Source: Elusimicrobiota bacterium (lineage in GTDB: Bacteria > Elusimicrobiota > Elusimicrobia > 2-02-FULL-39-32). From it: DNA of 64,000 nt. The stretch lies in assembly GCA_021730935.1 (NCBI GenBank), contig JAKFYJ010000011.1:3401-67400 (forward strand), read 5' to 3'. This document shows, piece after piece, positions 27,330 to 58,208 of this stretch. Both the position numbers and the translations under genes were made by a program. The notes beneath the pieces are model-generated. The model was not told where the DNA came from. It saw nothing but the letters and a program-made list of their open reading frames with translations, and did no database searches. How positions within the stretch are numbered: position 1 is the stretch's first letter; every line of letters begins with the position of its first letter.

Positions 27330-27365
27330 GTTAGTACCCTCCTTGTGGTTTAGTGTATCTTTGAA

Positions 27366-38149: not shown

Positions 38150-38808
38150 ATAAAGAAAACTTGCGCAAATATCTGGCAGAGGCAATCGGGACATTTTGTC
38201 TTGTGTTCGCAGGCACGGGAGCGGCGGCTGTGAATCAGGCCACAGGCGGACAGCTGGGCGTCGTGGGCGTGGGGCTGGTTTTCGGGCTTGCGGTCCTTGC
38301 GATGATCTATACGATCGGTCCCGTTTCCGGCGCGCACATGAACCCTGCAGTGACTCTCGCCTTCGCAGTCGCGGGCCGCTTTCAATGGAAGGAAACTGTC
38401 CCTTATATGGCTGCCCAAATTGCGGGCGCCATAACCGCGAGCCTTGTTTTGAAAATTATCTTTTATGGGAACGCGACCCATCTCGGGATGACATTGCCGT
38501 CAGGGTCCTGGGGTCAGAGTTTTGCTTTGGAGTTTATGTTGAGTTTCATCCTGATGTTCGTCGTGATGGGTGTCTCGACGGACGGACGGGAAGAGGGCAT
38601 TATGGCTGGGGTTGCAATCGGCTCGATCATCGCACTGGAAGCTATTTTTGGAGGACCGATCTCCGGGGCCTCCATGAATCCTGCAAGGTCTCTGGCTCCT
38701 GCGCTCGTTTCAGGGAACTTGCAGTTCCAATGGATTTATTGGATTGCGCCGATTTTTGGAAGCATTTCCGGCGCGTTCGTTTATGCGTTGGTCTCCACCA
38801 AAATTTGA
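38146..38808 (+). CDS. MIP-family channel (aquaporin/aquaglyceroporin)
   Basis: Two NPA motifs (SGAHMNPAVT and SGASMNPARS) and 6 TM segments. Its start overlaps the arsC stop. Confidence 0.85.
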   Translation: MNKENLRKYLAEAIGTFCLVFAGTGAAAVNQATGGQLGVVGVGLVFGLAVLAMIYTIGPVSGAHMNPAVTLAFAVAGRFQWKETVPYMAAQIAGAITASLVLKIIFYGNATHLGMTLPSGSWGQSFALEFMLSFILMFVVMGVSTDGREEGIMAGVAIGSIIALEAIFGGPISGASMNPARSLAPALVSGNLQFQWIYWIAPIFGSISGAFVYALVSTKI

Positions 38809-41800
38809 TGTTTGAGCCGTTCTTTGGAATCCTGGAGCGGAACAGTTCTTGCAGGAAGAACCAAAGTTCCATTGGGCCCTTCCATGTCCCTCATCATTTT
38901 TCCGGCTTTTTCACTCCCATAAACTGAATTCATAAATTCTGACATTTCTCTCGTCGCCTCCGGGCTCAAAGCAACGGAAACCGCAAAAGGATCTGAAATG
39001 ACTCCCCCGTCCCCTGCATGGACGCCCAAAATGATCTTAAACAAGTTCGAGATTTCCCCCACAAAAATTCCAGAATCAGGCGTGATGAGAGAGAAGGCGA
39101 GGTCAGAGGTGTCCCGTCTCTCTCCCTTTTCCAAAACCTTCAGGACCGATTGAGTGAGGGGTTTTAATCCGATTTTGGTGCCCTCAGGCGTTTCGACGAG
39201 TGAATTTTCCTGCTGGAGGCGGTGGAAGTCCCATATGAAGTTTTCAGAAACGAGGCCCTGAGGAATGTCCGCCTGACGGAGGCATTCGTTCATCACCTGC
39301 GCCAGAATCTCCCGCTCCGTGTTTCCGGCCTCCAGTCCCTCAAAATCAATGAGGGGCTCATGAGAAATCAGAGCGAAGCGAATCTGTTTTTCTCGTCCCT
39401 GGGACGCCGCGTCGTCCAAAATCGCGTGGATCTGCCGGAGAGCAGAGCTGATTCCGGGCCGCGTCTTGAAACTCACGAGCCCTTCTTTATAACTGATTTC
39501 TTCAAATAATGATCTGCGGTCGATGAGGATGACCCGCGTCATTTTATTGTTCAGTGTTCCCGGGTTCCAGGGGGCGATTTCTGAAGCGTCACCCCAGGCC
39601 ATTGTTGAGAACGCTCCCATCAAGGCCTTTTCGGCGGAAACAATTTTGCTGGGCTTGTCATTTGCCACGGACTGCAAATAATCCTGAGCCCATTGTGAAT
39701 CTGGAAGCGCCGCGGCAAGCCCGGCTTGTATCTGAAGCGAAAATACGTTTCCATGAACATCTTTTTCAAGCCACGCGAGAGGTTTGCTCATGGATGGAGC
39801 GACGATTCCGAATGAAGGAACTCTTCCCCGGAGGTCGCCCGGCATGGAAGCCACAACGGCGGCGAGGTTGGGATAATCTTTTTTGCGGATGCGTTTCCCG
39901 GTCAAGAAAAAGCGCAGTCTCATAAAGAGGGAAAAAATCAGCATCAAAGGCGGGAATGCCGCTCCCTGGAGGTTCTCAACATCAGTTTTGCTGCTATTTT
40001 GTAGGGAAGTCAACCGCTCTTCGAGAACCTGTTTTTTTGCTTTGAGATCATTTATTTCCTGCTGTGCTTTTTTATCGGCATTTATTTCAGGTTTTTTTAA
40101 ATTCCCGGCTAAAAAGCGTCCGACTTTGACCGCTCCATCGCGCACGACGGTGTTGATGTCATAAGTTTTCATTTTCATCCCGCGCTCTGCCCGCGTAATT
40201 TCGTTGTCGGCAAGGCGGACTTCAATTTCTGCCAGTTTGATCTCTGCATCGCGACTAAATGTAAATTCATCGTCTAAATCCTTCTTTGCGTCTGCAAGGA
40301 TTTCTGCGGCATTTTTTCCGTCGGCGAATTTCAAAGGTGACGATGAGGGACGGCGGATCATATGATTGATTTTTGAGAGGATTTCCTCCCGTTCCTTGTG
40401 GTTTTGAGCAGAAAGGTTATCGTCAATCGCCGCCAGCCTCGTCAGGTTTTGGACGAACCATTCGGCGTATCTGGCGCGTTCTTTTTGAGACAAAAGCGCG
40501 GTTCTTTCAGCCTGCAGGGAGGCTTGCTCAGCTTCCCAATGTCTATAATCTCTTGATCTCGAAGTCCAGGACGGCAAAGGAATGACAAAGGGAACCCCAA
40601 ACCTTACGCGCAGGCTTCCCTTAACGCCCTGGTCTTTTACGATTTGCCTGAATTTCAGTTCTTGAACGCGGAGGGCCTTGAAATAGACAGAGTTGTCCAA
40701 CGATTCACGGATCAGTCGGGGGATGTCTGCATTGCTGATTTCCAACGCATTGTCTTGAGCCCCTTTAGTCTCATTCTTCTTGTCCTTATCGGCGTTTCGG
40801 GCTTGTTTTATCTCTTTTTCAAGTTTCTTTTGTTCCGCGCTCTTTCCGCTTTTGAACGCAACAGGATAAACCCGGACATCGGCGCCAAGACCCGGGGTCG
40901 TGCCGAAATTGAATCCGAGCCTCACGGACGGATCGGAACCGAATTGTTGAAGGGTGAAAGGGAGGACGGGGAACCCCACGGCAGATTGGGCCGCGAGATA
41001 TGGGTTCAAATCACTCCGATTGTGGAATAGTTTCACCAGTCCGTCGGAAAAGTTGATTGAATAGATGAATCCCGCGGGACGACCCAATCCGTCAGAACCG
41101 AAACCGGCTTTCCAGCTGAGGCCGAAATGAGAGCCCCCCACGGTGACGGCGCGATAGCTCCTCTTTGCGGTTTTGTTCCCGTCAACGAAACTGAATGTGA
41201 ACCCCTTGGGCCCCTTCGCGCTGACTGAATAAGACATCACATTCTCAGTGATGGCATTTTGGCGGATTTTGTGTTCCGGCCCCACCGAGACGGAAGCGGA
41301 CCAGAATTTTGGAGGAGCCGTGACGGTGAAAGCGGGTTTTATAAGGCCGCCCAAATGGTTTCCGGCAGGCTGGGTTGTCGGGATGAAAGTTCCGGACCCT
41401 CCGAACTGAAAGCCTTTCACTTTTGCGGTCTTGGGAGCGACTTTCATGCCGAAACCCCGCACCATGACTTCTGCCCCGGAAATTTTTCCGGGAGAGAGTG
41501 TGCGTTTATACTCATATTCTCCCATGTAAACGGCGCTCAGGGTTCCCCAGTAAAAGGCCCGGTTGAGGCCGGCGTTGACCATGGCATAGCGGTTCCTGTT
41601 TTCCGTCGGAAAATTTTGCTGGTCATTGGAACGGAGGATGTTGACTGCGTCCGCAGTGAACGACACATTTTTCGACAGTCTCGCGGAAAAATCCGCGCTC
41701 TGAGCGTTGGTTTGCAGATCATCGGTTCTTCCTCTTTCCGTAAAAATTTGAGCTCCGCCGGAAACGGCGTCGTGGGCGCTCAAGAGGCGCACGCTTTGGG

Positions 41801-44800
41801 AAAATGTGAATCTCAAAGGATCATCGGCAACATCCGGGGCTCCAGATCTCAAAGGATATTCCGCCAGCGGGCTCATTCCCACGCCGAAGGATGTGTGAGT
41901 GAGGGCCGAATTGCCACCAAAGGAATAACTGCGGATGGCGTCCCCTCGGACCGAAGCGTTCGAAGTTCCCGTGACGCGGTCTGTCGTGTTGTTGACCGTC
42001 ATAGAATAAACCGTTCCGTTGAAAGTCCCCATCGCCGTCCCTTGCTGTTGGCTCATGAGAGCGTTTGAGTTGACATTGAATGTCTGACGGTTTAACGACG
42101 TCATCTTGGATGCGTTGACCGCTTTTTTGGCGGCACGCATGGATTTGAGCAAGGCGTCTTCTGCGCTTTTTTGGGCCAGGAGATCGTTGCCGTATTGTTT
42201 TCCGGGATTCCTGTCCAATCCGTTCAACTCATCATATTTCGCCTTCAATTCCTTATTGGAAGGGTCCAAGGCCATGGCTTCCTGGAGGTCAAGCATGATC
42301 CTGGCATACTGCGCGTTGGTGTAAAAGTTGGTGGAAGGTCCGCCTGCAATGACTGCGACCGCAGCGTCTCCAACGGCTTCAACCGCCTTGTTTTGAGGCG
42401 GCGTTACGGATTTGATCTGAGGAACGGATAAATTTGACTGATCAGGATTGAGCCATGGCGAATTGTCGGGTGCGGCTTTGGCGGCATTTTGCGCGGGATC
42501 AAGAGCCGCTTCCAAATGTGTCTCTACAAGAGGAGTTTCCTCTGCAGAGGTCTCCATTTTAGGTGTTTCAGCCGGAGCAATGTCTTCGATTTGCTTTTTC
42601 GGCGTGGCGATGAATGATTTCGTTGTATTTTTGTTTTGGATATTGATGGAACGCGAGACCAAGGGCTGAGCGATCAAGGGTGACGGAAGTTCCGGCGCCG
42701 TGAGTGTTTGAACAACCGCGCTGTTCTTATTGACAGGCGGCAATCCAGGAGATTCGTTGAGGTTCAGCAGAGGAGCAATCGGCGTCAAAAGCGTGCTGAT
42801 GAGCGCGGAAGAAATGATGAGTCTTTTTAGGATCTTGCCGGATTTCTGCTGGGTCAGGGAATAGAGGATTAAAGCGGCGGTGACAAAATAGAAAAATATT
42901 GCGGCGCCATGAATGTAGGCGGCCATTTGGATTGGAGCAAAGCTGAATTTGGAGAGGGCTAAGAGAGTCAGCAATCCGTCAAAGGACAAGAGAAGCGGCA
43001 TCCTGGCAGGCGCGGAGATCCAGCGTTTCCATGAAGACGGCGACTGGGCCATGGCAGGTTCGGGATTTTGTGTTTTCAGGGTTCTGATATAAAGTTCCCA
43101 GGAAGAATTCCATCCTGCGGATTTTGCGGCGTTTGCCAAGCGCTCGATGGATGCGGCGTCGGGTCTGGGGAGAGAGGCAAGAATCTGACGGATTTCTTCC
43201 GCCGTCCTCACGATCCTAAACGACGCGCCTCGGGCTTTGTCCAAAGTCAGCATGTGGGGCGTCACTCTTCCTCGTTTGTCTTTTCTGCCGAACAAAACAT
43301 AGCTGTGGTGGCCGGCGGAGAAGGAATCGTCGGAAAGCAGGATGTCTGAGCTCCATCCGCGTTTTTCCGATTGTTCCCGAAACCATTGCCGGATCAGCTC
43401 GTTTCTCTCCTTGCCGATGCTTCCGGTTGCGGCCATGGCCATCATCATGAGGCCCATGTCCTGGACTTTCGCAGGATTGGCCAAGGGGCTCGCGGCTCTG
43501 AACGTTTGATCCTCGGCAGAGCCTGAGGGCTGAAGAATGGTGTAAGAAATGTTCTCCTTCGCGATTTCCTTCAAGGTTTCCTGAGTGTGGAATCCCCCCA
43601 TCACGAGCGCCGCTTTTTTTGCGCCGGTTGATTTTATGGCCGCAACTGCATTCTCCGCGAGGGCTTTGTTTCGCTTCTCCGCCGATTCAAAATATTTTTC
43701 CGCGAACCTTCTATGCGCCACGAAAACATCCGGGGGAAGGACGGTTTTGAGTTCAGGGAAATCCGCCGCAAAATCTTTCCAGGGCTTCATCCGGCCGAGC
43801 GAAAGATATCGGCTCCAATCTCCGGGCGCCGCCTTCAGGCTCCAGAGCCTTTCGTTCATTTCGCGCCAGACCGTGATCCTCAGCGCTTTGCTTTGCCGGT
43901 CGCTGTCGGCGATGCGTTCCAGGATCGCCAAAGAAAGGCTGTCCAACTCTCCCGCGAGGGCGTCCATCTTGACCGTGTCAAAGAGCTTGAGATATTCGAC
44001 ATAATTTTCCAGATTTCCCGTGGGCAGTCCAAACCTTCGTCCTTGGGAGAGAAGGATCGAATAATAGGGGCTTGCTTCCGTCCGTCCCAACCGAACTTCG
44101 AGGTTCATCCGGAACAATTGGGAAAGATCTTCTTTCGAAAGTTTATCCCCGAGGCGTTTTAAAAGAGCCTGGGACTGTGAGGGAACCGCAGAAAAATCAG
44201 ATTTAGGGAAGCGGGAGAGAGTGTCAAGAATTTTCCGGCATTGAGGGCGGCCTGCCAGGGCATTGTTCCATGCAGAGCGATGTTTTTCCTGCACGGACTG
44301 CGCGGCTTTCTGCAGATAATCCTCCGGGCTGATTTCACCGTCTGAGAGCAGCCGTCTGAGCTTGTCAAGATTTTTGAGTTCCTGAGAAAAGCAGGATTCT
44401 TTTATGTTGTTTAAAATGGGTTCGAGGTTCTTTAAATATTCCAAAACGGCTTTTTGGTCCCTGCGCACGCGGCCCTGAGCTTTTCCGTTTTCTTTATAAA
44501 GTTCGGGGTCTTCGATGCCCCGGATGAGGACTTTTCTCGGCGTTGTCAGGGCATAAAATTCATCGCCTCTTAAAGCGCCGCTGTCAAAAAGCTCGCGAAG
44601 GACTTGAGATTTTATTTCGGAGTCGGGGAAACTCGCAAGCGCCTGGATGTCCAGGTCTCCGGACGATCCTTCAGAAAGGATCAGGTCTGTCGATTCCCGG
44701 GAAGAATTTTGAAAAAGCACGGTCAGGGCGCGGTGGAGGTTTTTTTGAGCAGAACCGTCTTCGTGCATGTCCTGGAAATGATAAAGCATGGGAGATCCCG

Positions 44801-45020
44801 GATCGGCCATCCTCGTTTCAATGACCCTCGCGGTTTCCACGGGGAGCATGGGTTTATTGACGGCAATCTCCAGCGCGGGAGCCGGGGTCATCGCCTGGAC
44901 GGCTCTTCTCCGTTCCGACCACAGGTTGGCTTCCGCCGCGGGCGCGGCGATGGAACAATAAACCAGGATTGCGGCCAAAACGATGCGGACAAAATTTCCC
45001 GTCCGAAATTCAAAACTCAT
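38781..45020 (-). CDS. Giant secreted/membrane protein A (~2080 aa) with an N-terminal ChaN/Tiki-like domain; paralog of ORF 52500..58124
   Basis: The true start is the ATG at 45020 (MSFEFRTGNFVRIVLAAILVYCSIAAPAAEA, a signal peptide; SD GAGGAG). The track ORF extends further upstream. ChaN-like motifs: YHFQDMHED ... RGDEFYALTTP ... IRGIEDPELY ... ALVMGGFHTQ. These are followed by a hydrophobic cluster, a Pro-rich linker, a G/S/T/N-rich beta-type region, a K/E-rich coiled coil and a C-terminal domain. Confidence 0.75.
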   Translation of the reverse strand: MSFEFRTGNFVRIVLAAILVYCSIAAPAAEANLWSERRRAVQAMTPAPALEIAVNKPMLPVETARVIETRMADPGSPMLYHFQDMHEDGSAQKNLHRALTVLFQNSSRESTDLILSEGSSGDLDIQALASFPDSEIKSQVLRELFDSGALRGDEFYALTTPRKVLIRGIEDPELYKENGKAQGRVRRDQKAVLEYLKNLEPILNNIKESCFSQELKNLDKLRRLLSDGEISPEDYLQKAAQSVQEKHRSAWNNALAGRPQCRKILDTLSRFPKSDFSAVPSQSQALLKRLGDKLSKEDLSQLFRMNLEVRLGRTEASPYYSILLSQGRRFGLPTGNLENYVEYLKLFDTVKMDALAGELDSLSLAILERIADSDRQSKALRITVWREMNERLWSLKAAPGDWSRYLSLGRMKPWKDFAADFPELKTVLPPDVFVAHRRFAEKYFESAEKRNKALAENAVAAIKSTGAKKAALVMGGFHTQETLKEIAKENISYTILQPSGSAEDQTFRAASPLANPAKVQDMGLMMMAMAATGSIGKERNELIRQWFREQSEKRGWSSDILLSDDSFSAGHHSYVLFGRKDKRGRVTPHMLTLDKARGASFRIVRTAEEIRQILASLPRPDAASIERLANAAKSAGWNSSWELYIRTLKTQNPEPAMAQSPSSWKRWISAPARMPLLLSFDGLLTLLALSKFSFAPIQMAAYIHGAAIFFYFVTAALILYSLTQQKSGKILKRLIISSALISTLLTPIAPLLNLNESPGLPPVNKNSAVVQTLTAPELPSPLIAQPLVSRSINIQNKNTTKSFIATPKKQIEDIAPAETPKMETSAEETPLVETHLEAALDPAQNAAKAAPDNSPWLNPDQSNLSVPQIKSVTPPQNKAVEAVGDAAVAVIAGGPSTNFYTNAQYARIMLDLQEAMALDPSNKELKAKYDELNGLDRNPGKQYGNDLLAQKSAEDALLKSMRAAKKAVNASKMTSLNRQTFNVNSNALMSQQQGTAMGTFNGTVYSMTVNNTTDRVTGTSNASVRGDAIRSYSFGGNSALTHTSFGVGMSPLAEYPLRSGAPDVADDPLRFTFSQSVRLLSAHDAVSGGAQIFTERGRTDDLQTNAQSADFSARLSKNVSFTADAVNILRSNDQQNFPTENRNRYAMVNAGLNRAFYWGTLSAVYMGEYEYKRTLSPGKISGAEVMVRGFGMKVAPKTAKVKGFQFGGSGTFIPTTQPAGNHLGGLIKPAFTVTAPPKFWSASVSVGPEHKIRQNAITENVMSYSVSAKGPKGFTFSFVDGNKTAKRSYRAVTVGGSHFGLSWKAGFGSDGLGRPAGFIYSINFSDGLVKLFHNRSDLNPYLAAQSAVGFPVLPFTLQQFGSDPSVRLGFNFGTTPGLGADVRVYPVAFKSGKSAEQKKLEKEIKQARNADKDKKNETKGAQDNALEISNADIPRLIRESLDNSVYFKALRVQELKFRQIVKDQGVKGSLRVRFGVPFVIPLPSWTSRSRDYRHWEAEQASLQAERTALLSQKERARYAEWFVQNLTRLAAIDDNLSAQNHKEREEILSKINHMIRRPSSSPLKFADGKNAAEILADAKKDLDDEFTFSRDAEIKLAEIEVRLADNEITRAERGMKMKTYDINTVVRDGAVKVGRFLAGNLKKPEINADKKAQQEINDLKAKKQVLEERLTSLQNSSKTDVENLQGAAFPPLMLIFSLFMRLRFFLTGKRIRKKDYPNLAAVVASMPGDLRGRVPSFGIVAPSMSKPLAWLEKDVHGNVFSLQIQAGLAAALPDSQWAQDYLQSVANDKPSKIVSAEKALMGAFSTMAWGDASEIAPWNPGTLNNKMTRVILIDRRSLFEEISYKEGLVSFKTRPGISSALRQIHAILDDAASQGREKQIRFALISHEPLIDFEGLEAGNTEREILAQVMNECLRQADIPQGLVSENFIWDFHRLQQENSLVETPEGTKIGLKPLTQSVLKVLEKGERRDTSDLAFSLITPDSGIFVGEISNLFKIILGVHAGDGGVISDPFAVSVALSPEATREMSEFMNSVYGSEKAGKMMRDMEGPNGTLVLPARTVPLQDSKERLKHQILVETNA

Positions 45021-45240
45021 AAGATTTTCTCCTCGACATAATAAAATTGATGGGTAAAGTTTATCTGATTCACGGACCCATGGACATGGCGGGCAATTAA
45101 AATCTGTTTGACGGTCTGTTGACAGGAGGGAATGAGGTTTGTCATATGGATGAAACACGGATTTTACATTCGGGGCATGTGTGGAAAGCCTTAAAGGTGG
45201 TATGATTGACAGGTATAATACACACAAGGTCATCGTCCTC

Positions 45241-48234: not shown

Positions 48235-48271
48235 CTTGCTTGTGAATAACCTGTGGATAACTAAAGAGAAG

Positions 48272-49069: not shown

Positions 49070-50064
49070 ACATCGTTCTCGTTTCGGATGCCTGGACGCC
49101 CCAGGTGAACGGAGTTGTGACCACCTTGAGGACGGTCTCAAACCAGCTTGAAGTTTTGGGGCATTCCGTTTATGTCGTGAGCCCCGACCAATTCAAAACC
49201 ATCCCGTGCCCGACCTATCCCGAAATCCGTCTTGCTCTGAATCCGGGCAAAAAAATTTCCGATCTCATGGCGTCCTTGAGGCCCTCGGCGGTCCATATTG
49301 CGACCGAAGGGCCTCTGGGAATCGCCGCGAGGTCTTATTGCATAAAACAAAGGATTCCCTTCACGACGTCGTTCCACACGCGTTTCCCCGAATATATCGA
49401 GGCGCGGACCAGAATTCCCTCACAGTGGACATATCCCCTCGTGCGCTGGTTCCACGGAGCGGCGAGCCGCACAATGGTGGCGACCGACACTCTGGTGAGC
49501 GAACTTTCGGGCAGAGGATTCAGCAATGTCGTGCGCTGGTCCAGAGGCGTGGACACGGACCTTTTTCATCCCAGATCCAAGGACTTCCTGCAATTCCCCA
49601 GACCCATCTTCCTTTATGTGGGCCGCGTTTCAGTGGAAAAGAACATCAAATCATTTTTGAATCTGAATTTGAAAGGAACGAAGCTGGTGGTCGGAGACGG
49701 CCCGGATCTGCGGAAACTTAAATCAGAATATCCGGAGGTAAAATTTGTTGGAGCAAAATTCGGAGAAGAGCTGGCCCATCATTATGCCGCGAGCGACGTT
49801 TTTGTGTTCCCCAGCAAGACAGACACTTTTGGGCTGGTCCTCCTGGAAGCCATGGCCAGCGGGATTCCGGTTGCGGCCTATCCTGTCCCCGGCCCCAACG
49901 ATGTGGTCGGCAATTCCGGAGCTGGAATCTTGTCGGACAATCTCGAGCAGGCCGCAGTGGACTGTCTGAAAATCGATCCTCAAATCTGCCGCGATCACGC
50001 TCTCAAATTTTCCTGGGAAGCCTGTTCCAAACTTTTTCTGAGCCACCTTGAACCCATCCATTAA
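49066..50064 (+). CDS. Glycosyltransferase family 4 (GT-B, retaining), Agt-like
   Basis: An N-terminal GT4 domain (NGVVTTLR...) and the C-terminal E-x7-E region (FVFPSKTDTFGLVLLEAMASGIPV). Confidence 0.7.
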   Translation: MNIVLVSDAWTPQVNGVVTTLRTVSNQLEVLGHSVYVVSPDQFKTIPCPTYPEIRLALNPGKKISDLMASLRPSAVHIATEGPLGIAARSYCIKQRIPFTTSFHTRFPEYIEARTRIPSQWTYPLVRWFHGAASRTMVATDTLVSELSGRGFSNVVRWSRGVDTDLFHPRSKDFLQFPRPIFLYVGRVSVEKNIKSFLNLNLKGTKLVVGDGPDLRKLKSEYPEVKFVGAKFGEELAHHYAASDVFVFPSKTDTFGLVLLEAMASGIPVAAYPVPGPNDVVGNSGAGILSDNLEQAAVDCLKIDPQICRDHALKFSWEACSKLFLSHLEPIH

Positions 50065-51175
50065 CATCCTTATTTTATACGCGTCCGTCGGAGAAGGCCA
50101 CCGAAGCGCCGCGCTCGCCGTTCAATCCGCCATGAAGGAGGCCCGCCCCGATGCTTATGTGGATTGCCTGGACGTCCTGCAGTTCGCTCGCCCCATTTTT
50201 AAGAAAATATATTCCGGAGGCTATGTTTCGCTCCTGCAGCGAGCGCCTTCGCTTGTGGCCTCTCTTTATGAAAACTTCGACCAAAACCGTCCCGGAGATT
50301 CCATCCTCGACTGCGTGAGGCTGTTTCTGGAAGAATCCGGGCTCCCTGAATTTGAGGAATTTCTTCAAAGCCGGCGTTATGACCTCATCATCAACACTCA
50401 TTTTTTGCCGACCGAAATTGTGGCGGCCCTTAAAAAGCGGGAAAAAATTTCCGTTCCTCAAGTGACGGTCACCACGGATTTCATGACGCACAAGCTCTGG
50501 GTGCATGAACCCTGCGAGCATTATTTTACGGCGACAGCGGAGGGTGCGGAACATTTGGAAACTTTTGGGGTCCCTAAAAATAAAATTACTCCTGCCGGAA
50601 TTCCCATCCGCCCTGGCTTTCACCCCAACGGCTTGGTGAAAAATGACCGGCCTTCGATCTTGGTCATCGGCGGCGGACTTGGACTGGGTCCCATTTTGGA
50701 CATTTATCGAAAACTCCTCGAGATTGAAACGCCTCTCACCCTTCAGGTGGTGGCGGGCCGAAACGAACAGGTCAAATCCGATCTTGAAAAGTTCCCAGTC
50801 CCTCCGCGGCATCAATCTTGCATTTATGGGTTCACCGAAAAAATGCCCGAACTCATGAGCCATGCGGACATCATCCTGACCAAACCCGGCGGGCTGAGCG
50901 TTTCCGAAGCCCTCGCTTCCGGCGCCGTGATCTGCGTCGTAAACCCCTTCCCCGGCCAGGAAGATTTCAACGCAGGATTTCTCATCCGCAATGAAGCCGG
51001 CATCTCGATCAAAGACACGAATTTAATCCCCGACGAAATTTCAGCGCTATTAAATAATAAAAATAAGGTTGAGATCATGAAGAAAAACTCCCATAATCTA
51101 TCCAAACCCCATGCCGCAAGAACCATCGCAGAAAAATCTCTGGAGTTTGTCGCCGCCCATGAAAAGAGAAATTAA
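50048..51175 (+). CDS. Diacylglycerol glycosyltransferase, MGDG-synthase/UgtP-like (GT28)
   Basis: N-terminus INILILYASVGEGHRSAALAV, the GT28 N-terminal signature. TTG start at 50048. Overlaps the previous gene. Confidence 0.6.
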   Translation: MNPSINILILYASVGEGHRSAALAVQSAMKEARPDAYVDCLDVLQFARPIFKKIYSGGYVSLLQRAPSLVASLYENFDQNRPGDSILDCVRLFLEESGLPEFEEFLQSRRYDLIINTHFLPTEIVAALKKREKISVPQVTVTTDFMTHKLWVHEPCEHYFTATAEGAEHLETFGVPKNKITPAGIPIRPGFHPNGLVKNDRPSILVIGGGLGLGPILDIYRKLLEIETPLTLQVVAGRNEQVKSDLEKFPVPPRHQSCIYGFTEKMPELMSHADIILTKPGGLSVSEALASGAVICVVNPFPGQEDFNAGFLIRNEAGISIKDTNLIPDEISALLNNKNKVEIMKKNSHNLSKPHAARTIAEKSLEFVAAHEKRN

Positions 51176-51725
51176 GCGGAAGCTCTTTCATGCTCTCTCG
51201 CTCGTCTATGCCGCGGGCTATTATTATCTCGGCAAGGAATCGGTGCTGAAAATACTCGTGCCTGCGATCGTGATCGTGGGGATTGTGGAGTCCTCCCGCC
51301 TTCTTTTTCCCAAACTGAATCAGGCCATCATGCCTCTTTTCGGCGGCATTCAGCGCGAGTCCGAAATGACCCGCTTCTCCGGCATCTTTTGGACTCTTTT
51401 GGGATGCATCCTCACCATTTGGATTTTTAAAGATCCCAGGATTATCCTCTGCTCGCTTGGATATTTGGTTTTCGCGGACGCGGCGGCGGCTCTCGTCGGA
51501 GTGCCGCTTGGACGCCATAAATTTTTCGGCAAGAGCATGGAAGGAAGCCTGGCATGTTTTACGGCCAGTCTTTTGGTGGGTTTGGTGTTTTTGAATCCTT
51601 TATGGGCCGTTTCCGCCGCATTTTTCGTCACGGCGGTGGAGCTCGCGCCCCTCCCCTGGAACGACAATTTATGGATTCCCACCCTCTCGGGCTGTTTCTT
51701 GACTCTAAAAAGTATTATTCTATAA
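51159..51725 (+). CDS. CTP-transferase-like integral membrane protein (CdsA / phytol-dolichol kinase family)
   Basis: MKREIKRKLFHALSL...ADAAAALVGVPLGRHKF..GKSMEGSLACF, the family's C-terminal signature. Multiple TM segments. The start overlaps the previous gene. Confidence 0.45.
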   Translation: MKREIKRKLFHALSLVYAAGYYYLGKESVLKILVPAIVIVGIVESSRLLFPKLNQAIMPLFGGIQRESEMTRFSGIFWTLLGCILTIWIFKDPRIILCSLGYLVFADAAAALVGVPLGRHKFFGKSMEGSLACFTASLLVGLVFLNPLWAVSAAFFVTAVELAPLPWNDNLWIPTLSGCFLTLKSIIL

Positions 51726-51727
51726 CC

Positions 51728-52411
51728 ATGCTGAAAGAAAAAGTCCTCATCGTTGAAGACGAAAAAGAAATTTCCAAGCTCCTGAAATATAACCTCGAAA
51801 AAGAGGGGTATCAGGTTTTTGCCGCGACCGACGGAGAAGCGGGGCTTGCCCTCGCGAAATCCAAACATCCCGACATGATCATTCTGGACCTCATGCTCCC
51901 CAAACTTTCCGGTATCGAAGTCTGCAAGATGATCCGCAAAGATTCCCAGGTGCCCATCATCATGCTCACAGCCAAAAAAGAAGAGACGGACCGCGTTCTG
52001 GGCTTGGAACTCGGCGCCGACGATTATGTGACCAAACCTTTCAGTGTCCGGGAACTCCTGGCCAGGATAAAATCCCTTTTCCGCAGGTCCAAAGAAAAAA
52101 CGAGCGACGCGAAAGTCGTGCGCGCCGGAAAGTTGGAAGTGGACCTGGAACGATATGAAGTGAAACTCGCGGATAAGCTCGTTGAGCTTTCTTCCAAAGA
52201 ATTTACATTCCTCAAAGTCCTCCTCTCCGCCCAGGGCAAGGTGCTCACTCGCGATCAGCTTCTGGAATCAGTCTGGGGCTATGATCAGGCCTCTGAAATC
52301 GACACGCGCACCGTCGATCAGCATGTGGCGCGCCTGCGCGTCAAGCTCGGCTCGGAAGCGTCCCGCCTCGCCACCGTCAAAAACATCGGCTACAAATTCA
52401 AGATTAACTAA
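51728..52411 (+). CDS. phoB: OmpR/PhoB-family response regulator (tentative PhoB)
   Basis: A receiver domain (VLIVEDE...DLMLP...TAKKEETD) plus a winged-helix domain (TVDQHVARLRVKLG...IGYKF). It is similar to E. coli PhoB throughout. The real start is the ATG at 51728. Confidence 0.7.
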   Translation: MLKEKVLIVEDEKEISKLLKYNLEKEGYQVFAATDGEAGLALAKSKHPDMIILDLMLPKLSGIEVCKMIRKDSQVPIIMLTAKKEETDRVLGLELGADDYVTKPFSVRELLARIKSLFRRSKEKTSDAKVVRAGKLEVDLERYEVKLADKLVELSSKEFTFLKVLLSAQGKVLTRDQLLESVWGYDQASEIDTRTVDQHVARLRVKLGSEASRLATVKNIGYKFKIN

Positions 52412-52419
52412 AAAAATCC

Positions 52420-52448
52420 GTCACGGGACTTTCACACCCATTTTACTT
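52420..52448 (+). promoter_or_regulatory. Phased Pho-box-like heptamer array upstream of giant gene B
   Basis: GTCACGG (52420), 4 bp, TTCACAC (52431), 4 bp, TTTACTT (52442). The 7-4-7-4-7 geometry matches the arrays at pstS and the PlcP-like gene. Confidence 0.45.
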
Positions 52449-52499
52449 CGCTTCAATGGGTTTTCGGCCCGCAGTGAGATAAGATGAACGCCATAACTT

Positions 52500-55400
52500 A
52501 TGATCAGGCGTCTCCTTCTCGCGTGTTATGTGTTTGCAATGACGGCTCCGCCCTATGCTGAGGCGTCTTTTTGGAGTGAAAGAAAAGCGGCAACGGAGCG
52601 GATGCATCAGTCCGGCAGGCAGATCCGCCGAATTCTTCCCCTTGAGAGTGAAGTCCAAAACCCCGTTTCAGATTTAGGCTTCTCAATTCCAGAATCTGTC
52701 GGGACTGTTGTTGAATCCTGGACGGAGGGATCGCCTCAGCTTCCGGTCATCCTGCACATCCAAGACGCGCACAACCATTTCGCGGCCCAAAAAAATCTGG
52801 CCCGAGTTTTGAACGCCGTTGCTGAAACCTCTGCAGATAAAACCGCGCTGAGTGACCCTTTGCCTGTTTATGTTGAAGGCGCTTGGACACGGATCGAGAC
52901 GGCCTTTTTAGGCGCTTTCCCGGACGAGCGGCTCAGGGAGAAGTCTGCGCAGACCCTGCTGAAGAAAAATCGGATCAGGGGCGAAGAATATTTTGCGATC
53001 CTGCATCCGGGGGCCATTGCGATTCATGGCGTTGAAGATCCCGATCTTTATCAGGCGAATGTGACAGCCCGGGACTCCGCGCGGTCTTCCCTGGACGCGC
53101 GTATCTCCGAAATCAATTCGGAACGCGCGCTGATCTCTCAGGCAAAGATGGAAATTTATCCCCCCTCGTTGCGCGAACTCGACCTTGTCCGAGAAAAAGT
53201 TGACGCTCAGCAAAATACGCTGAAAGATCTTCTCCGCCTCGTGATCAAGACCTGTCCCAAAACTTGGGCAAAGGATGCGTTCCCGGAACTGAAGAAATTC
53301 CTGGACGCCGCCGTTTTCGAAGATCAGGTTTCGTCAAAGGGTCTGGAAGGCGAGCGCGCCGCAGTCCAGAAAATTCTAAGCGAAAACCTAACGGGTTCCC
53401 AGGCGTCGGATTTCCTGAACCTTTGCCTTCAGTTCCGTCTTGGGAAAGTCAGTTCGCGCGTTTTTCATTCCCGCCTTGCCTCCATGGCCAGAGCCTTTTC
53501 AATTCATGTCCCCAACCTCGACAATCTTGTCCAAGGCCTGAACCAGTCAGGAAATATTGGCTATGACAAAATAGAAAAAGAATTGGACGAGCTTATGATT
53601 TCTGCGTCTGCAGAATTGATTGAATCTCAGGTTCGGCCGGAACTTCGTCAAAGGGCGAACGAAATATATGGCAAAGACCGGACCCTCTCTTTCAACGCCA
53701 AGTGCCTCAAATGGCAGGTGTCATCGAACGAATGGCACCGCCGAAGAAATGAAATTGAATCCATCAACCAGGGCCAGGTCAAGTTTATGGCTGAATCGTA
53801 TTATGACCTCGCTTTGCGGCGGGACCGGGCCATGGTTGAAAACCTCTCGCGATGCATCAAGCCCGGAACGCGCTCGGCCATTCTCATTGCCGGGGGATAT
53901 CACACCGAAGGCATCACGGAACTTCTGAAAGCAAAAGGGTTCCGTTATCTCGTTATCCGTCCTTCTTTGCAGATTGAATCGGGTGAAAGCTCCGCGGAGG
54001 GTCTCTCTTCGCTTCAGGCATGGGATGACCTAAAATCCGCCTATGCCGGCGCGCTCGAAAAGATCCTTTCTCAAGACAAAGAAGCTTTGTCTGTCAGAGA
54101 AGCGGTGGATGTCCTGAAGACCCTGGATTTGTCTGTGCCAGTTTTGATTGATGGAAAGCCCTATGCTTTGGGGCATTCCCCCTTCCTCTCGCCTTCCAGC
54201 TTCGCATGGCCGTTGACGGGACGCGGGATGGACGGGAACTATGCAAAATCCGGAACTAAAAAAATATACGGCCACACTCTGCGCAGCATGAGCGCATTTA
54301 ACAGCATGGGTTCTCCTGCCCGGCTTCTGCCTGAATTTTTTGCGGCGATGCTGCAGAACGGCGGCGAATCGATGGAAGACCTCAGGGTTTTGGAGGATTT
54401 ACTGCATGACGGCATGACGCTTGAATTGCCTGAAGGCAGTCACGGCGCGGCCGGAGGCATTATCAAACTTCTTTCGAAGGTGCGGTTTGTTCCCGGGCTG
54501 ATGAACATTGCGCATAACGGATCTCTTCGGATCACGATTAAACGCGACCGCCTGCCGGAAACCATGGTGACTCCGGCATCCATATTTTATCCTTATCGCA
54601 AGGCTGTCCTGGAAAAACGCCTCCCGAAACCTCAGTCTTGGGCGAAAAAAACCGCGATGTTTCTGGGTGAACTCAAGGTCACCGCGGTTTGGGAAACCGT
54701 GCTTTTTAGAATATTGCCTGTGCTGATGTTTCAGCAGGGAGGTTCCATTCACTCTCAAGGCTGGACCGCAGGAGCCCTCACGCTTCTGACCCTCTTTCCT
54801 CTTTCCCACTCAATCGTTTCATGGCGCGTGCATGAGAGTGAAATCAAGGGCCGCTCAGCGGTTAAGCCCCGATATATGGCCAATCTCTTTGTTCACCTCG
54901 GCATCAGTTTGTTTTTGCTCGTTCCGTTTTTCCAGTTCAGTCTTGTTCCCGCCGCGGCCGTCAGTTTGGGGACGCAGATGCTCCTGGACTTCGCCATCGA
55001 CGGGGCTCTGGATAACCATAAAAATGATAACCGTCATTATTCTCAAGCGATGCCTTATCAAGAGAAAGAGCTTCCTTCAACCTTGGAAGTCACGAACCCG
55101 GACCTGGTGAAATGGAGAGAAATTCTCAACAGCCCTGCGCCTCTTGGAAGGAAAGAGTGCATGGCCATCCTGAACATCGCCAAAGCCGTGATCAACAACA
55201 ATTTCATCAGGCCCCGGACCCTGGTGAGATATCTCCACGAGGTTGGGCGCACCAACCGACAGCTGACGATCCTCAGCCGTGTGACTGCCGACCGTCTCAT
55301 TCTCCAGGTCGAAAACGGCTCTTTGGACCCTGATCTGGCCCATGATCTGGTGCGTTATGCGAGAGAGCTCAAAAAATTTGCGGGATATTCCCTGATTTAT

Positions 55401-58124
55401 CGCCTCGGCATGACGCGCGTGAGCAATTACCGCCAGTTGTCAGGATACGGTCTTCCCGTCGGAGGACACCGCACGCGGTTTAAGCATCTGATGGAGGGAT
55501 TCATCCGGCCTTTCGCCTGGATGGTCCAAAAATTTTGGGGTTTCAGTTTCGGGATGTTCGTGGTCAGGAAACAATTTTTCGGAGCCGAAGGAAATGATGG
55601 GCGGTTTTGGAAAAAACTTTTCGGCGAAGGGCACCTTTCCGCCATGCTGAATGCCGGAAACGAGGTGGAGCCTTCATTATATCCCGAGGCGAAAAACATA
55701 AAAAAAGTCCTGTTCGAGGAAATGCGCCATTTGAACATCCAAACGGCGGAATTCGACAACGAATTGACCTGGCCCTGGCGAAAAATCATGACCCGCATTT
55801 TCGGTCTTTCTTTCGTGGTTCTGCTTCTGGATGTTTCGGTCTATGGTTTCAACTGGCTCGTTTATGGGGCCCCTTTCACTTATACGCTTTCCAGCGCCAT
55901 CATTTCCGCGGGGCGCGCAGTGCTTTTCTCCATTTTTATGTCCTGGTCATTCATTTTGTTCGGGATGAGAGACAGTTTTTATGCCGCTGAAAGCAAGAAA
56001 CTGAAATCTCTTGAAAACCGCATTTCGGAAGCCGAACAGAGGGTCAGCGAAAGTTCGCCCTCGGGAGGGAAAACATTGCTTCAGTCAGAATATTTGCGGA
56101 CTTTGTCGTCTGCGGATAAGGAAAAATCGATGTCGGCACCCTCGGCGGACATCATCCTTCTCGTCACTCCTCCCGGGCGGACAGAATCCGCGGAACTGCG
56201 CGGCATTCTGGAAGGCAGAGGCAAAGGATTGTTGCGGCAGGATGTCCCCGTGATCACTCTTCCCAGCCAGCGCGAAGGGAGCGGGATGGGATATCTCAAC
56301 TCCATGCAATACCTTCATTCTCCGGAATTTGAAATGGAAAGATCGAAACATCCCCATTTGCGGGGCCGGAGCCTGGACGATCTCCGAGTCCTTGTCTTGT
56401 TGGCGGATGAACCCTCAGTCAAGTCCGCGGCCACTCCGCTTTCCCTCCCCTTTCTGGACCGCGCGATTACGCCGCTCGAATTTTCACTTCTGAACGGATA
56501 CAAAGCCTGCCAGGCGATGTCGGGCGAGCGCAGGGGCGGCGTGGCCGTCATGTTCTCTGATGAGCTTTTCATCAGCCCCATCCAGGTCCAGAACGGGATC
56601 ACGCTCTTGACGTCCTGGGTCGGTTATAAAGACCTGGTCGACCAGAACATGGACCTGATGGTCGTGGACCGCTCTTTCCGTCGAGTGCAGAAATTTTATC
56701 CCAACGCCATCAGCGAGGATCCAATGCACATGAAGAACCGGGTGGAGCGCCAGGCGGTCACGGCGAGGTATGACCTCTCCAATCCTGTCAAAAAGCAGAT
56801 GATCGCTTTTACGGGCGGATTTGTCGCGTCTTTTGCCGATGCCAGCGCCGCTGAAAGTTTTTATTCCGCGAATGAGCGGATCCGCCGGCAGGTCAACGAC
56901 AGAAGGCGCCGCAGTTATCCGATCGATCTCGAGAGCCACCTCCTGGCTCCCATGGTGATCGCCTCAAACAGGGAAGATGTTTATAGCTATCTTGCCAAAC
57001 ACAGGAACGGAAGGCCTTTGGCCCTGAAAAGTCGGGAATGGGCTTTTTTCAGCGGGCTTATGCAGGCGGTGGAACAGAGCCAGGGCATTGAGGTCAACGC
57101 CTCGGTTCCCTATCCCACACAGTCCGCCTTTTATTTTACCCGCACCAAGGAAGGCGTGCCTTATTATGACGACGCGCAAATCGCTCAGCTCTGGAAAGAC
57201 CTCGGCGTTGCTGACGAATTTCGTTCGTCGTCTGTTCAGGATGATTCTAAACCGTCACAATTTTCAAAATTTGGAGATCAATTCCGCGTTATTGCGGTTC
57301 GCACGGCTGTTTTAATCCTTTTCGTCTTCTCCAATGTTCCCCCCGTTTCCCGTTGGTCTGCGAGCCGCCTCGAAGCCATTGCCGTCAGACCGGAGTTCAA
57401 TTTGCTCCAGCCTGAAACCCGCTCTCAAGTCAGGATAAAAATTCTCGGATCCCGAGCCCGTTCCGGTCCCGTAAACGGGGCAGGCCTTGTAGACCGCCAT
57501 TTTGAAAAACTATTGAATGTTTTGAGTGCTGAAAGGTCCGGAACGCTCAGTCCGGGATATTTCGTCGTGAACCTCAACGGCCTCCTGAACCGGACGGAGC
57601 AGGGATTCGAATTCAGGGAAGAGTTGTCGGATATCCTGACCCGTCTGGACGGAAGGATGTCTCAAAATTCCGATTTGGATCAGGGGTCGGGTTTTGTTTT
57701 CATCAGCGATCAGCCCAGAGAACAAATAGAAGAACTGGCGGCGAGCCTTGGGGTGTCTGCGGGGCACATTCGGATCATCGCTCCGACAGCGCAGTCGGCT
57801 GAACATGAAATCCGCATTAAAAACGGATCCGTAAAATCGGTCCTTTCATGCCGTGAGCCCGGAACAATAAATGAAATGAAAAAAATATTCAAAAACGCGG
57901 ACGCCCTCCTCCTCACACCGTTTTTCGCTGAGATCGATCACGATTATACGGTTCACGGCGGCGCGGCATCAGAAATATACAAGGGATTGGAACAGGAAGG
58001 GCTGATTTCGGACCGGGTTCATTATTCCCCGAAGGACCAAACCCTCATCCTGGAGGGAAGGGCCGCGGAAACAGACCTTTCCCTGAGGCTCCGGCGCGTC
58101 CGATATGTGCGCATCCAGGCATGA
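52500..58124 (+). CDS. Giant polytopic membrane protein B (1874 aa) with an N-terminal ChaN/Tiki-like domain; paralog of giant A
   Basis: Signal peptide MIRRLLLACYVFAMTAPPYAEA. ChaN-like motifs: LHIQDAHNH ... RGEEYFAILHP ... IHGVEDPDLY ... AILIAGGYHTEG. Many hydrophobic segments are spread over the remaining ~1300 aa, with large soluble regions of unknown family. Confidence 0.75.
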   Translation: MIRRLLLACYVFAMTAPPYAEASFWSERKAATERMHQSGRQIRRILPLESEVQNPVSDLGFSIPESVGTVVESWTEGSPQLPVILHIQDAHNHFAAQKNLARVLNAVAETSADKTALSDPLPVYVEGAWTRIETAFLGAFPDERLREKSAQTLLKKNRIRGEEYFAILHPGAIAIHGVEDPDLYQANVTARDSARSSLDARISEINSERALISQAKMEIYPPSLRELDLVREKVDAQQNTLKDLLRLVIKTCPKTWAKDAFPELKKFLDAAVFEDQVSSKGLEGERAAVQKILSENLTGSQASDFLNLCLQFRLGKVSSRVFHSRLASMARAFSIHVPNLDNLVQGLNQSGNIGYDKIEKELDELMISASAELIESQVRPELRQRANEIYGKDRTLSFNAKCLKWQVSSNEWHRRRNEIESINQGQVKFMAESYYDLALRRDRAMVENLSRCIKPGTRSAILIAGGYHTEGITELLKAKGFRYLVIRPSLQIESGESSAEGLSSLQAWDDLKSAYAGALEKILSQDKEALSVREAVDVLKTLDLSVPVLIDGKPYALGHSPFLSPSSFAWPLTGRGMDGNYAKSGTKKIYGHTLRSMSAFNSMGSPARLLPEFFAAMLQNGGESMEDLRVLEDLLHDGMTLELPEGSHGAAGGIIKLLSKVRFVPGLMNIAHNGSLRITIKRDRLPETMVTPASIFYPYRKAVLEKRLPKPQSWAKKTAMFLGELKVTAVWETVLFRILPVLMFQQGGSIHSQGWTAGALTLLTLFPLSHSIVSWRVHESEIKGRSAVKPRYMANLFVHLGISLFLLVPFFQFSLVPAAAVSLGTQMLLDFAIDGALDNHKNDNRHYSQAMPYQEKELPSTLEVTNPDLVKWREILNSPAPLGRKECMAILNIAKAVINNNFIRPRTLVRYLHEVGRTNRQLTILSRVTADRLILQVENGSLDPDLAHDLVRYARELKKFAGYSLIYRLGMTRVSNYRQLSGYGLPVGGHRTRFKHLMEGFIRPFAWMVQKFWGFSFGMFVVRKQFFGAEGNDGRFWKKLFGEGHLSAMLNAGNEVEPSLYPEAKNIKKVLFEEMRHLNIQTAEFDNELTWPWRKIMTRIFGLSFVVLLLDVSVYGFNWLVYGAPFTYTLSSAIISAGRAVLFSIFMSWSFILFGMRDSFYAAESKKLKSLENRISEAEQRVSESSPSGGKTLLQSEYLRTLSSADKEKSMSAPSADIILLVTPPGRTESAELRGILEGRGKGLLRQDVPVITLPSQREGSGMGYLNSMQYLHSPEFEMERSKHPHLRGRSLDDLRVLVLLADEPSVKSAATPLSLPFLDRAITPLEFSLLNGYKACQAMSGERRGGVAVMFSDELFISPIQVQNGITLLTSWVGYKDLVDQNMDLMVVDRSFRRVQKFYPNAISEDPMHMKNRVERQAVTARYDLSNPVKKQMIAFTGGFVASFADASAAESFYSANERIRRQVNDRRRRSYPIDLESHLLAPMVIASNREDVYSYLAKHRNGRPLALKSREWAFFSGLMQAVEQSQGIEVNASVPYPTQSAFYFTRTKEGVPYYDDAQIAQLWKDLGVADEFRSSSVQDDSKPSQFSKFGDQFRVIAVRTAVLILFVFSNVPPVSRWSASRLEAIAVRPEFNLLQPETRSQVRIKILGSRARSGPVNGAGLVDRHFEKLLNVLSAERSGTLSPGYFVVNLNGLLNRTEQGFEFREELSDILTRLDGRMSQNSDLDQGSGFVFISDQPREQIEELAASLGVSAGHIRIIAPTAQSAEHEIRIKNGSVKSVLSCREPGTINEMKKIFKNADALLLTPFFAEIDHDYTVHGGAASEIYKGLEQEGLISDRVHYSPKDQTLILEGRAAETDLSLRLRRVRYVRIQA

Positions 58125-58208
58125 TCTGTCATGCTGATGTCATACAGACTTTACTTTCGCGCTATGGGTCAGCAGTCTGGATTCAAATAAAATAACGGGA
58201 GATTAAAT

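Follow-up and report, generated by a model that had tools for sequence, protein, structure and literature searches.

Two paralogous giant proteins with a predicted TIKI-fold head in a phosphate-starvation gene neighbourhood of an Elusimicrobiota bacterium

Tiki1/Tiki and PrgY are laid out as a signal peptide followed by a TIKI domain and a transmembrane (TM) segment. Elsewhere in the same superfamily, the MARTX effector RRSP uses a 2His/2Glu catalytic set composed of E3900-x-H3902, E3930 and H4030, with R4001 also needed for activity; PMT, HopBA1, Bcr135 and ChaN are its structural relatives, and in Bcr135 the H85/E113 pair has been named (PMC6254334). According to two preprints, the long proteins of Omnitrophota combine TM helices and signal peptides with a "multi-enzyme metabolic" content (bioRxiv 10.64898/2026.06.07.730766; West-Roberts et al., 10.1101/2023.11.21.568195). 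Here we analyze a 64,000-nucleotide stretch of contig JAKFYJ010000011.1 from an Elusimicrobiota bacterium (GCA_021730935.1; hereinafter the window), in which two divergently oriented long genes, A and B, bracket a set of phosphate-starvation (Pho) genes and code for proteins sharing an N-terminal domain (hereinafter the head). This head is best called a new, divergent family inside the TIKI/ChaN/EreA superfamily, and A and B are probably envelope proteins under Pho control whose exported head is a hydrolase. The two genes and the elements of their shared region are as follows:

38781..45020, minus strand: gene A, 2079 aa, with a signal peptide, TIKI-fold head, TM hairpin, Pro-rich linker, G/S/T/N-rich beta region, charged helical region, TM segment and C-terminal domain
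44928..45020, minus strand: signal peptide of A, residues 1-31 (...APAAEA/NLWSERRR, the slash marking the putative cleavage), from the sequence and a hydropathy scan
43506..44927, minus strand: head of A, residues ~32-505, with QDMH, SEG, KRN and GGFHT motifs and all the invariant residues of the family
52500..58124, plus strand: gene B, 1874 aa, with a signal peptide, TIKI-fold head, TM clusters, NDP-sugar pyrophosphorylase-fold module, TM segment and C-terminal domain
52500..52565, plus strand: signal peptide of B, residues 1-22 (MIRRLLLACYVFAMTAPPYAEA/SFWSERK, putative cleavage at the slash), from the sequence
52566..53984, plus strand: head of B, residues 23-495, with the helical insertion at ~181-452
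Within the head of B, plus strand: invariant codons from the alignment, namely D89 at 52764, H91 at 52770, E126 at 52875, R441 at 53820 and G465-G466-x-H468 at 53892-53903

A BLASTP comparison of A with B returned a single significant alignment (A 11-499 with B 2-489; 24% identity, 45% positives, E 4e-41), and outside the head the remaining segments aligned at E ~1 or higher. Since this E-value extends over ~500 aa with nothing further along, chance cannot account for the N-terminal paralogy, and no relationship links the tails: judged by their sequences, A and B are true paralogs over the first ~500 residues and unrelated thereafter. An earlier reading of this DNA, made from the letters and translations alone (hereinafter the sequence-only reading), had proposed precisely this, namely a shared signal peptide and N-terminal domain with corresponding motif blocks followed by wholly different downstream halves; the blocks it quoted are indeed present, and no significant alignment exists past the head. 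A search of the window with a hidden Markov model (HMM) of the head found no copies beyond A and B. The signals of both proteins are Sec-like, with RR or R, a hydrophobic core and A-E-A preceding [SN][FL]WSER[RK], and within the B-like clade an S-[FL]-W-x-E-R-[RK] mature N-terminus is kept. For A we took the ATG at 45020 ("MSFEFRTGNF") as the start; the mechanical open reading frame (ORF; 2252 codons) reaches a TTG at 45539, with the frame upstream of the ATG being low-complexity and overlapping the ppk1 promoter region. The ATGATC start of B is also present in a sister locus, L085, a 10-kb contig of GCA_021733565.1 that carries P0049, the ortholog of B.

The source being a contig of a metagenome-assembled genome (MAG), and the tails having few or no homologues, one could see in the long ORFs nothing but artefacts (assembly chimeras, fused calls or pseudogenes) and in their similarity a repeated mobile fragment. 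This is hardly credible in the face of uninterrupted frames of 6.2 and 5.6 kb in ~52% GC DNA, a collinear full-length ortholog of B (1805 aa) in an independent assembly, the same head-plus-long-tail layout in hundreds of independent assemblies, and an A/B identity of 24%, where a recent repeat would have kept far more. A gene-calling artefact or recoding was likewise ruled out by the absence of all three stop codons over 5.6-6.2 kb together with the full-length ortholog.

The placement of A and B as TIKI-headed proteins is carried by the structure and conservation of the head. An AlphaFold model from an alignment of 34 very divergent family sequences (18-34% identity) is confident (pLDDT 84.4, pTM 0.77) and has the α/β core of the superfamily, a central, mostly parallel β-sheet flanked by helices. 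Its six strands, at 68-177 and 459-488, are separated by an all-helical insertion of ~270 residues, in agreement with the long α-helical insertion that the sequence-only reading had foreseen. Seven of the eight top structural matches of the model fall in one superfamily (TIKI/ChaN/EreA). The alignment is marked by the motifs IIHIQDAH, vEGA.G, GIED..LY..N, FY..A.kRD and vLI.GGfHT, and D89, H91, E126, G177, R441, G465, G466, H468 and P488 (B numbering) are invariant in all 34 sequences, A included. In the model, D89/H91, E126 and GG-x-H468 come directly after strands 83-89, 121-125 and 459-465, and D89-x-H91, E126, R441 and H468 follow the order of the RRSP set with similar spacing and at strand ends; Bcr135 also matches. 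At the level of sequence and model the head accordingly displays a His-Glu pair, or 2His-2acid set, at strand ends together with an Arg. Resting on the model, the fold assignment and family identity are very probably sound, and by analogy with these enzymes there is a reasonable case for the head being an active hydrolase.

At the level of sequence profiles the picture is fainter. Pfam searches with A and B gave no PF01963, PF04187 or PF05139 match at E≤1, NCBIfam searches gave no useful match to either, and phmmer searches of both against PDB sequences found none. Below threshold, two of six close members matched PF04187 (ChaN; E 0.0031), and the ortholog of B matched PF01963 (TraB/PrgY/GumN; E 0.0075, 16.6 bits against a cut-off of 26.8 bits). 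A SHOCT match on A/B (E 5.7e-4), lying below its cut-off, and thiamine-related matches, taken as noise, were discarded.

With Tiki1/2, the vertebrate Wnt-inactivating proteases, and enterococcal PrgY/TraB (PF01963), the head shares the order of signal peptide, TIKI domain and TM segment. It differs from them in having Q-D-x-H in place of their G-x-x-H, in its ~270-aa helical insertion, in the lack of an HMM match at the curated threshold, and in being trailed in A and B by 1.3-1.6 kaa (thousand amino acids) of extra domains in place of a simple anchor. The erythromycin esterases EreA/B/C, and with them Bcr135/Bcr136 ("succinoglycan biosynthesis protein"; PDB 2rad, 2qgm, 6xcq), are, unlike the head, cytoplasmic stand-alone enzymes of ~400 aa, and no sequence-level match links it to them (Pfam on A and B; profile against PDB sequences). 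RRSP (PDB 5W6L) is an internal effector delivered into host cells without a TM-rich tail, whereas the head is a Sec-signalled N-terminus; HopBA1 (5T09) and PMT C1/C2 group with RRSP as structural relatives of the head. ChaN, the haem-binding lipoprotein of Campylobacter jejuni (PDB 2G5G, PF04187), has ~14% identity to the head and half its size. We rejected a ChaN-like lipoprotein signal for A and B on finding, by eye, that the Cys of each signal peptide lies outside a usable lipobox; the neighbours, moreover, are Pho and nitrogen genes in place of a haem- or iron-uptake context.

These comparisons bear on the idea that the head is a non-catalytic ligand-binding module (a ChaN-like cofacial haem binder) or a periplasmic sensor, with A and B as sensory or scaffold proteins. 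We judge this quite improbable: in contrast to ChaN, the catalytic-type residues of the head are invariant, and across the 34 divergent sequences these invariants make up the acid-x-His, Glu, Arg and His set of the RRSP and Ere enzymes; neither protein carries a lipobox, and genes of iron or haem uptake are missing from their neighbourhood. A hydrolase head remains our preferred reading.

Rather than forming a locus-specific fusion, A and B belong to a large, apparently undescribed family. Protein searches recovered 32 relatives with B and 14 more with A, and all 46 homologues (1045-3387 aa) match only via a domain at their own residues ~30-550. A pattern built from six close head sequences and scanned over one genome per GTDB species gave 300 matches, 265 of them confirmed relatives, with the best identity to B being only ~31%; the head thus opens at least 265 genes. 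The sequence-only reading had supposed that Tiki-like fusions of this size are uncharacterised; the fusion is not unique to A and B. The MAGs carrying heads are labelled as Elusimicrobia, Candidatus Omnitrophota, Auribacterota and Ratteibacteria, and there are in addition several bins that are probably mislabelled. Multiple head copies per genome are common, with three on one 83-kb contig; head genes often occur as pairs in one 20-kb locus (L005, L006, L009, L022, L033, L041, L074), in tandem or, as here, divergent (L041), and often have further giant ORFs, of 3000-6000 aa and above, beside them (seen in L003 and L004 too).

The family comes in split and fused forms, the head being either a gene of its own (~550 aa) or joined to an unrelated tail of 1-4 kaa or more. 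Of the fetched loci, 44 contain the end of the head ORF: in 21 cases it is stand-alone (446-621 aa), in 23 it measures 867-3773 aa, and many further ORFs run past the locus edge at >3800 aa. The stand-alone heads almost always have a large same-strand ORF within 320 bp on the 3′ side, and the seven such ORFs that we scanned code for GlmS (two), PGK-containing proteins (two), a glpX-type FBPase, a class-V FBPase and a DeoC-type aldolase. This split head/enzyme arrangement was observed for heads of ~505-591 aa in L021, L024, L031, L037 and L066 and also in L040, L051, L052, L064 and L065; some stand-alone heads are followed by ORFs of glmS size (610-630 aa), those of L021 and L037 having been scanned and found to be GlmS. 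Fused tails include sugar-phosphate enzymes (enolase, phosphoglucomutase, TIM with GAPDH, glycogen phosphorylase, UDPGP, PEP-utilising domains, IMPase with HAD) as well as sigma-70, Lon, DnaJ, HD and GGDEF domains, and the tails are essentially unrelated to one another (10 similar pairs among 48 proteins).

B and other family members combine a long ORF, a signal peptide and TM segments, and several unrelated modules, as expected of giant multi-enzyme membrane proteins. They share with the multi-enzyme long proteins of Omnitrophota the sugar-metabolism and phosphotransferase Pfam domains tiled along the chains and the same candidate phyla, the likeness lying in the enolase, PGM, TIM, GAPDH, PGK and FBPase of the head family; the Omnitrophota catalogues, however, cover proteins of at least 10 kaa, and A and B are ~2 kaa. 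A term search of the Omnitrophota preprints found no mention of a Tiki/TraB/ChaN-like head, PF04187, PF01963 or Pho linkage, and in our literature search no paper was found combining Tiki or TraB with these phyla.

From this organization one might take the head for a maturation protease and the giant ORFs for polyproteins, cut within their own chain or at the S-[FL]-W-x-E-R-[RK] mature N-terminus, in the manner of the C39/S8 peptidase idea for Omnitrophota giant proteins. Tiki and RRSP are site-specific endopeptidases (PMC6254334), and N-terminal peptidase domains have been suggested possibly to split giant proteins (West-Roberts et al., 10.1101/2023.11.21.568195). The head is always N-terminal with modular, unrelated tails behind it, split head-plus-tail gene pairs occur, and the motif right after the signal cleavage site is kept in the B-like clade. 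Yet the signal peptide places a membrane between the head and the enzyme modules of cytoplasmic type, a conserved inter-module cleavage motif was not seen, and stand-alone heads beside an ordinary-sized glmS need no polyprotein; we therefore give self-processing a low probability.

Behind the head, the two chains are organized as follows:

42765..43007, minus strand: hydrophobic cluster of A, residues 672-752, from a hydropathy scan
40821..42758, minus strand: Pro-rich linker (755-930) followed by the G/S/T/N-rich region (931-1400) of A, from composition
38784..39956, minus strand: late TM segment of A (1689-1706, then RLRFFLTGKRIRKK) and C-terminal orphan domain of ~365 aa, from hydropathy
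54672..55955, plus strand: membrane region of B, hydrophobic segments 725-833 and 1096-1152 with a soluble stretch in between, from hydropathy
~56094..57116 (at the widest 56067-57149), plus strand: sugar-1-phosphate nucleotidylyltransferase (GDP-fucose pyrophosphorylase-like) fold module of B, residues ~1199-1539 (at the widest ~1190-1550)
57282..58121, plus strand: last TM segment of B (1595-1613) and C-terminal domain of ~255 aa, the latter common only to B and its ortholog P0049

In A, a K/R-rich loop between the last two segments of the hydrophobic cluster suggests, by the positive-inside rule, a hairpin returning the chain to the periplasm. The composition (Pro 11% in 755-930, G/S/T/N 34% in 930-1400, charged residues 40% in 1400-1690) agrees with the division into a Pro-rich linker, a beta-rich region and a coiled coil made by the sequence-only reading, and residues 931-1400 are, by composition, probably beta-rich. 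Judged by hydropathy and the charges flanking the segments, the chain would form a TM hairpin behind the head, run through the periplasm over a long middle part and cross the membrane a last time into a C-terminal domain that is probably cytoplasmic. A word-indexed search of 5.8e9 proteins with residues 881-2079 of A recovered only A itself; as the same method missed the 31%-identical ortholog of B, an ortholog of A may exist. No similarity was found between either tail and the 84 fetched loci and 48 first-round homologues, or between the tail of A and the alignment of the B module (local hmmsearch).

B has ~7 hydrophobic segments in three clusters between large soluble domains, so that its earlier description as polytopic throughout was overstated. 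Its module has the NTP-transferase (GT-A-like) fold and, in contrast to the GDP-fucose pyrophosphorylase domain of FKP, is embedded between TM segments and often duplicated in other giants. An exhaustive phmmer search with residues 701-1874 of B retrieved 87 representatives, of which P0049 is the best; a profile of the module alignment had no relevant match among PDB sequences, and a single distant member, P0132, matches PF07959 and PF00483. The module family is otherwise unannotated, occurs as two copies per polypeptide in many giants (P0050, P0053, P0056, P0057, P0062, P0064-P0066), and in 68 of 86 giant proteins carrying it the head is absent.

The genes around A and B form a phosphate-starvation neighbourhood (Pfam assignments unless stated otherwise):

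45181-47361, plus strand: ppk1
47338-48177, minus strand: CYTH (triphosphate tunnel metalloenzyme) ORF, converging on ppk1 and overlapping its 3′ end by ~24 bp
48125..51175, plus strand: calcineurin-like metallophosphoesterase, GT4 and MGDG-synthase-like GT28 glycosyltransferase (GT), putative lipid-remodelling genes upstream of phoB
51111-51725, plus strand: orf204, 204 aa, between the MGDG-synthase-like GT and phoB
51554..52411, plus strand: OmpR-type response regulator (phoB-like), immediately upstream of B
52419..52457, plus strand: four 11-bp-phased half-sites (cGTCAC / tTTCAC / tTTTAC / tTCAAT) in the phoB/B intergenic gap
45108..45125, minus strand: Pho-box-like direct repeat CTGTCAAcagaCCGTCAA, 11/14, in the intergenic region from which A and ppk1 diverge, ~95 bp before the start of A
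58126..58143, plus strand: near-perfect Pho box CTGTCATgctgATGTCAT, 13/14, two bases 3′ of the B stop; the Porin_5 gene, itself followed by pstSCAB, lies ~330 bp downstream

The block between the two divergent genes thus runs from ppk1 through the CYTH, metallophosphoesterase, GT4 and MGDG-synthase-like GT genes to the OmpR-type regulator. It is followed, 3′ of B, by genes for a Porin_5 protein and then pstS, pstC, pstA and pstB. On the other side, plus-strand genes converging on the 3′ end of A code for a PAS-HisKA-HATPase kinase (36540-37715; phoR-like), a low-molecular-weight phosphatase/ArsC-type protein and an aquaporin. The CYTH/ppk1 pair sets a polyphosphate kinase beside a possible tri- or polyphosphatase. 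orf204 has no Pfam or NCBIfam match and is a conserved member of the Pho/lipid-remodelling cluster (88% identical in L085).

Potential Pho boxes were scored against the Escherichia coli consensus, which may not be the PhoB motif of this lineage. At 13/14, ~0.02 matches are calculated to occur by chance in the window, and the box 3′ of B reaches this score. At ≥11/14, ~5 are expected and five were found; we accordingly rejected an enrichment of E. coli-type Pho boxes in the window, and for the same reason the box at 45108-45125 is not significant alone, being suggestive by position alone. Scans for sigma-70 promoters and terminators stayed at chance level. The phased Pho-box-like array that the sequence-only reading had placed before B, directly after phoB, is present as the 11-bp repeat at 52419-52457 and is kept in L085, where the GTCAC, TTT.AC and A.TTTACTTC blocks retain the 11-bp phase amid divergent spacers, the pattern expected of a candidate regulator site. 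Going by motifs and positions, Pho regulation of A and B appears fairly likely. A triple repeat, TCGTCACacagCTGTCACgcgaAGTTTAC, similar to the Pho box at 58126-58143, was also observed 3′ of the B ortholog in L085.

L085 keeps the gene order of the window: GT4, MGDG_synth, a 188-aa ORF that is the counterpart of orf204, the response regulator, the B ortholog, two small ORFs and the porin. The neighbours are 79-90% identical to the window proteins (GT4 85%, MGDG-synthase-like GT 79%, orf204 88%, phoB-like regulator 90%), whereas the porin is 47% and B 31% identical, and this contrast indicates that the order is kept while B evolves far faster. P0049 is collinear with B over its full length, with 40-50% identity in the head core and 18-43% elsewhere. 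The DNA tells the same: identity is 79.5% over 3052 bp (window 49354-52401 against L085 5-3052), ends at the phoB stop, is undetectable across the whole B gene (52500-58124), and resumes in the porin gene at 68%. B and the porin gene are in effect local divergence hot spots beyond a sharp conservation boundary at the phoB stop.

Pho genes also accompany heads elsewhere. In two related Elusimicrobia MAGs (L036, L050), a head gene directly follows phoB-phoR-pstS-pstC-pstA-pstB-pstB-phoU, with a phoB 70% identical to that of the window; in L043 it directly follows phoR-phoB, and in L032 and L084 head genes lie 2-8 kb from pst genes. By our estimates, Pho-gene adjacency is seen in ~4 of 80 genome loci (~5%) against ~0.7% expected per 20-kb window. 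None of the contexts of the four closest B homologues examined (P0002, P0003, P0005, P0007) contains Pho genes, and on this ground we rejected a Pho linkage of all family members. From the synteny in GCA_021733565.1, the L036/L050/L043 cases and the four closest homologues together, the Pho link is real for the B lineage and recurrent elsewhere, and not family-wide.

The accelerated divergence of B keeps alive a further alternative, that A and B are surface or secreted, effector- or adhesin-like proteins in an arms race with hosts, prey or phages, with the Pho position being incidental. Beside the 31% identity amid flanking genes at 79-90% and the loss of nucleotide similarity at the phoB stop, it could draw on the multi-copy expansion and clustering of the family's paralogs, the toxins or effectors among the structural relatives (RRSP, HopBA1, PMT), the proposal that Omnitrophota giant proteins act on host or prey cells (bioRxiv 10.64898/2026.06.07.730766; 10.1101/2023.11.21.568195), and the Pho-free surroundings of the closest homologues. 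Several TM clusters and cytoplasmic-type enzyme folds, on the other hand, argue against release, both the phased repeat preceding B and the succession phoB-B-porin persist between genomes, and Pho adjacency recurs independently well above the expected rate. We consider this alternative improbable, albeit less so than a sensory or self-processing head.

We thus tentatively favour A and B as paralogous, TIKI-headed, envelope-anchored and Pho-regulated proteins of envelope remodelling. The head would be a Sec-exported periplasmic hydrolase of ~470 aa (a peptidase or an esterase) with an enlarged helical lid of ~270 aa, held at the inner membrane by the TM segments behind it, and each paralog would carry its own private, fast-evolving tail behind it. 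In the tail of A, the Pro-rich linker would lead into a beta-rich region in the periplasm, then a coiled coil and, in the cytoplasm, an orphan domain; that of B would have membrane segments and a cytoplasmic NDP-sugar pyrophosphorylase-fold module. Both genes would belong to a Pho regulon with ppk1, the phospholipid-to-glycolipid remodelling genes and porin-pstSCAB, and under phosphate limitation the exported head would hydrolyse an envelope substrate in the course of envelope remodelling. The B module might in addition supply activated sugar to the adjacent GTs for the synthesis of phosphorus-free glycolipid or glycan, although we regard this step as rather unlikely.

Several observations weigh against this reading. 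A Foldseek search with the head model gave no significant match, and a profile of the head alignment found no superfamily member among PDB sequences; the ChaN/Tiki likeness put forward by the sequence-only reading therefore stands on fold and residues and not on an HMM match at threshold or on Foldseek. The first acidic residue of the head is Asp where RRSP has Glu, and the invariant residues are taken as one putative catalytic-type set from their linear order and strand positions in the model. The predicted export and topology of A and B derive from hydropathy and charge, and the K-rich flanks of the first post-head hydrophobic segment of B fit a simple topology model poorly. The B module has no Pfam match in B or in 15 close copies, none of 16 close copies matches PF07959 or PF00483, and a canonical G-x-G-T-R NTP loop was not recognised in it by eye, so the module may be non-catalytic or of different specificity. 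The candidate Pho sites upstream of A and of B are individually weak, boxes of ≥11/14 are no more frequent in the window than expected, and the closest homologues of B have no Pho genes beside them. Finally, the tails of the family often hold cytoplasmic housekeeping-type enzymes, which are uninformative on the target of an exported head.

More speculatively, and with a low probability in our view, the family as a whole might be one of phylum-spanning "TIKI-headed" envelope machines, in which membrane segments and cytoplasmic enzymes acting on sugar phosphates (enolase, PGK, TIM, GAPDH, FBPase, aldolase, PGM and NDP-sugar pyrophosphorylases) are physically joined, in one chain or one operon, to an exported hydrolase, with paralogs wired into stress regulons such as Pho and diversifying at arms-race speed. 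Were this so, the processing of envelope or extracellular, possibly host-derived, substrates would be tied directly to central carbohydrate and phosphate metabolism. If, on the other hand, our favoured reading of A and B is right, the hydrolase fold of Wnt inactivation (Tiki), pheromone control (PrgY), macrolide resistance (Ere) and toxins (RRSP, HopBA1) would gain a third large bacterial incarnation, as the N-terminal head by which hundreds of giant membrane proteins without other kinship are united in poorly understood, mostly uncultured phyla, and one HMM, five candidate catalytic residues and the split/fused pattern would offer a handle to classify the dark-matter giants of Omnitrophota and Elusimicrobia. 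On that reading A and B would also be candidate new players in lipid and envelope remodelling under phosphate starvation. The B locus, with a 31%-identical ortholog amid 80-90%-identical neighbours, is a natural experiment in accelerated evolution.

Elsewhere in the window, two ammonium transporters and a type III glutamine synthetase (25713-27383, 32410-34569 and 35082-36329, all on the minus strand) lie just upstream of the Pho block, so that genes for nitrogen and phosphate limitation are clustered. Further upstream, a minus-strand ORF of 3361 aa (2460-12545) has a filamentous-haemagglutinin (FHA)/TPS N-terminal domain (TIGR01901, E 3e-19) and FHA-type repeats and is probably a two-partner-secretion exoprotein; a low-GC patch at 2001-4000 (0.416 against ~0.52 elsewhere) covers its 3′ part.

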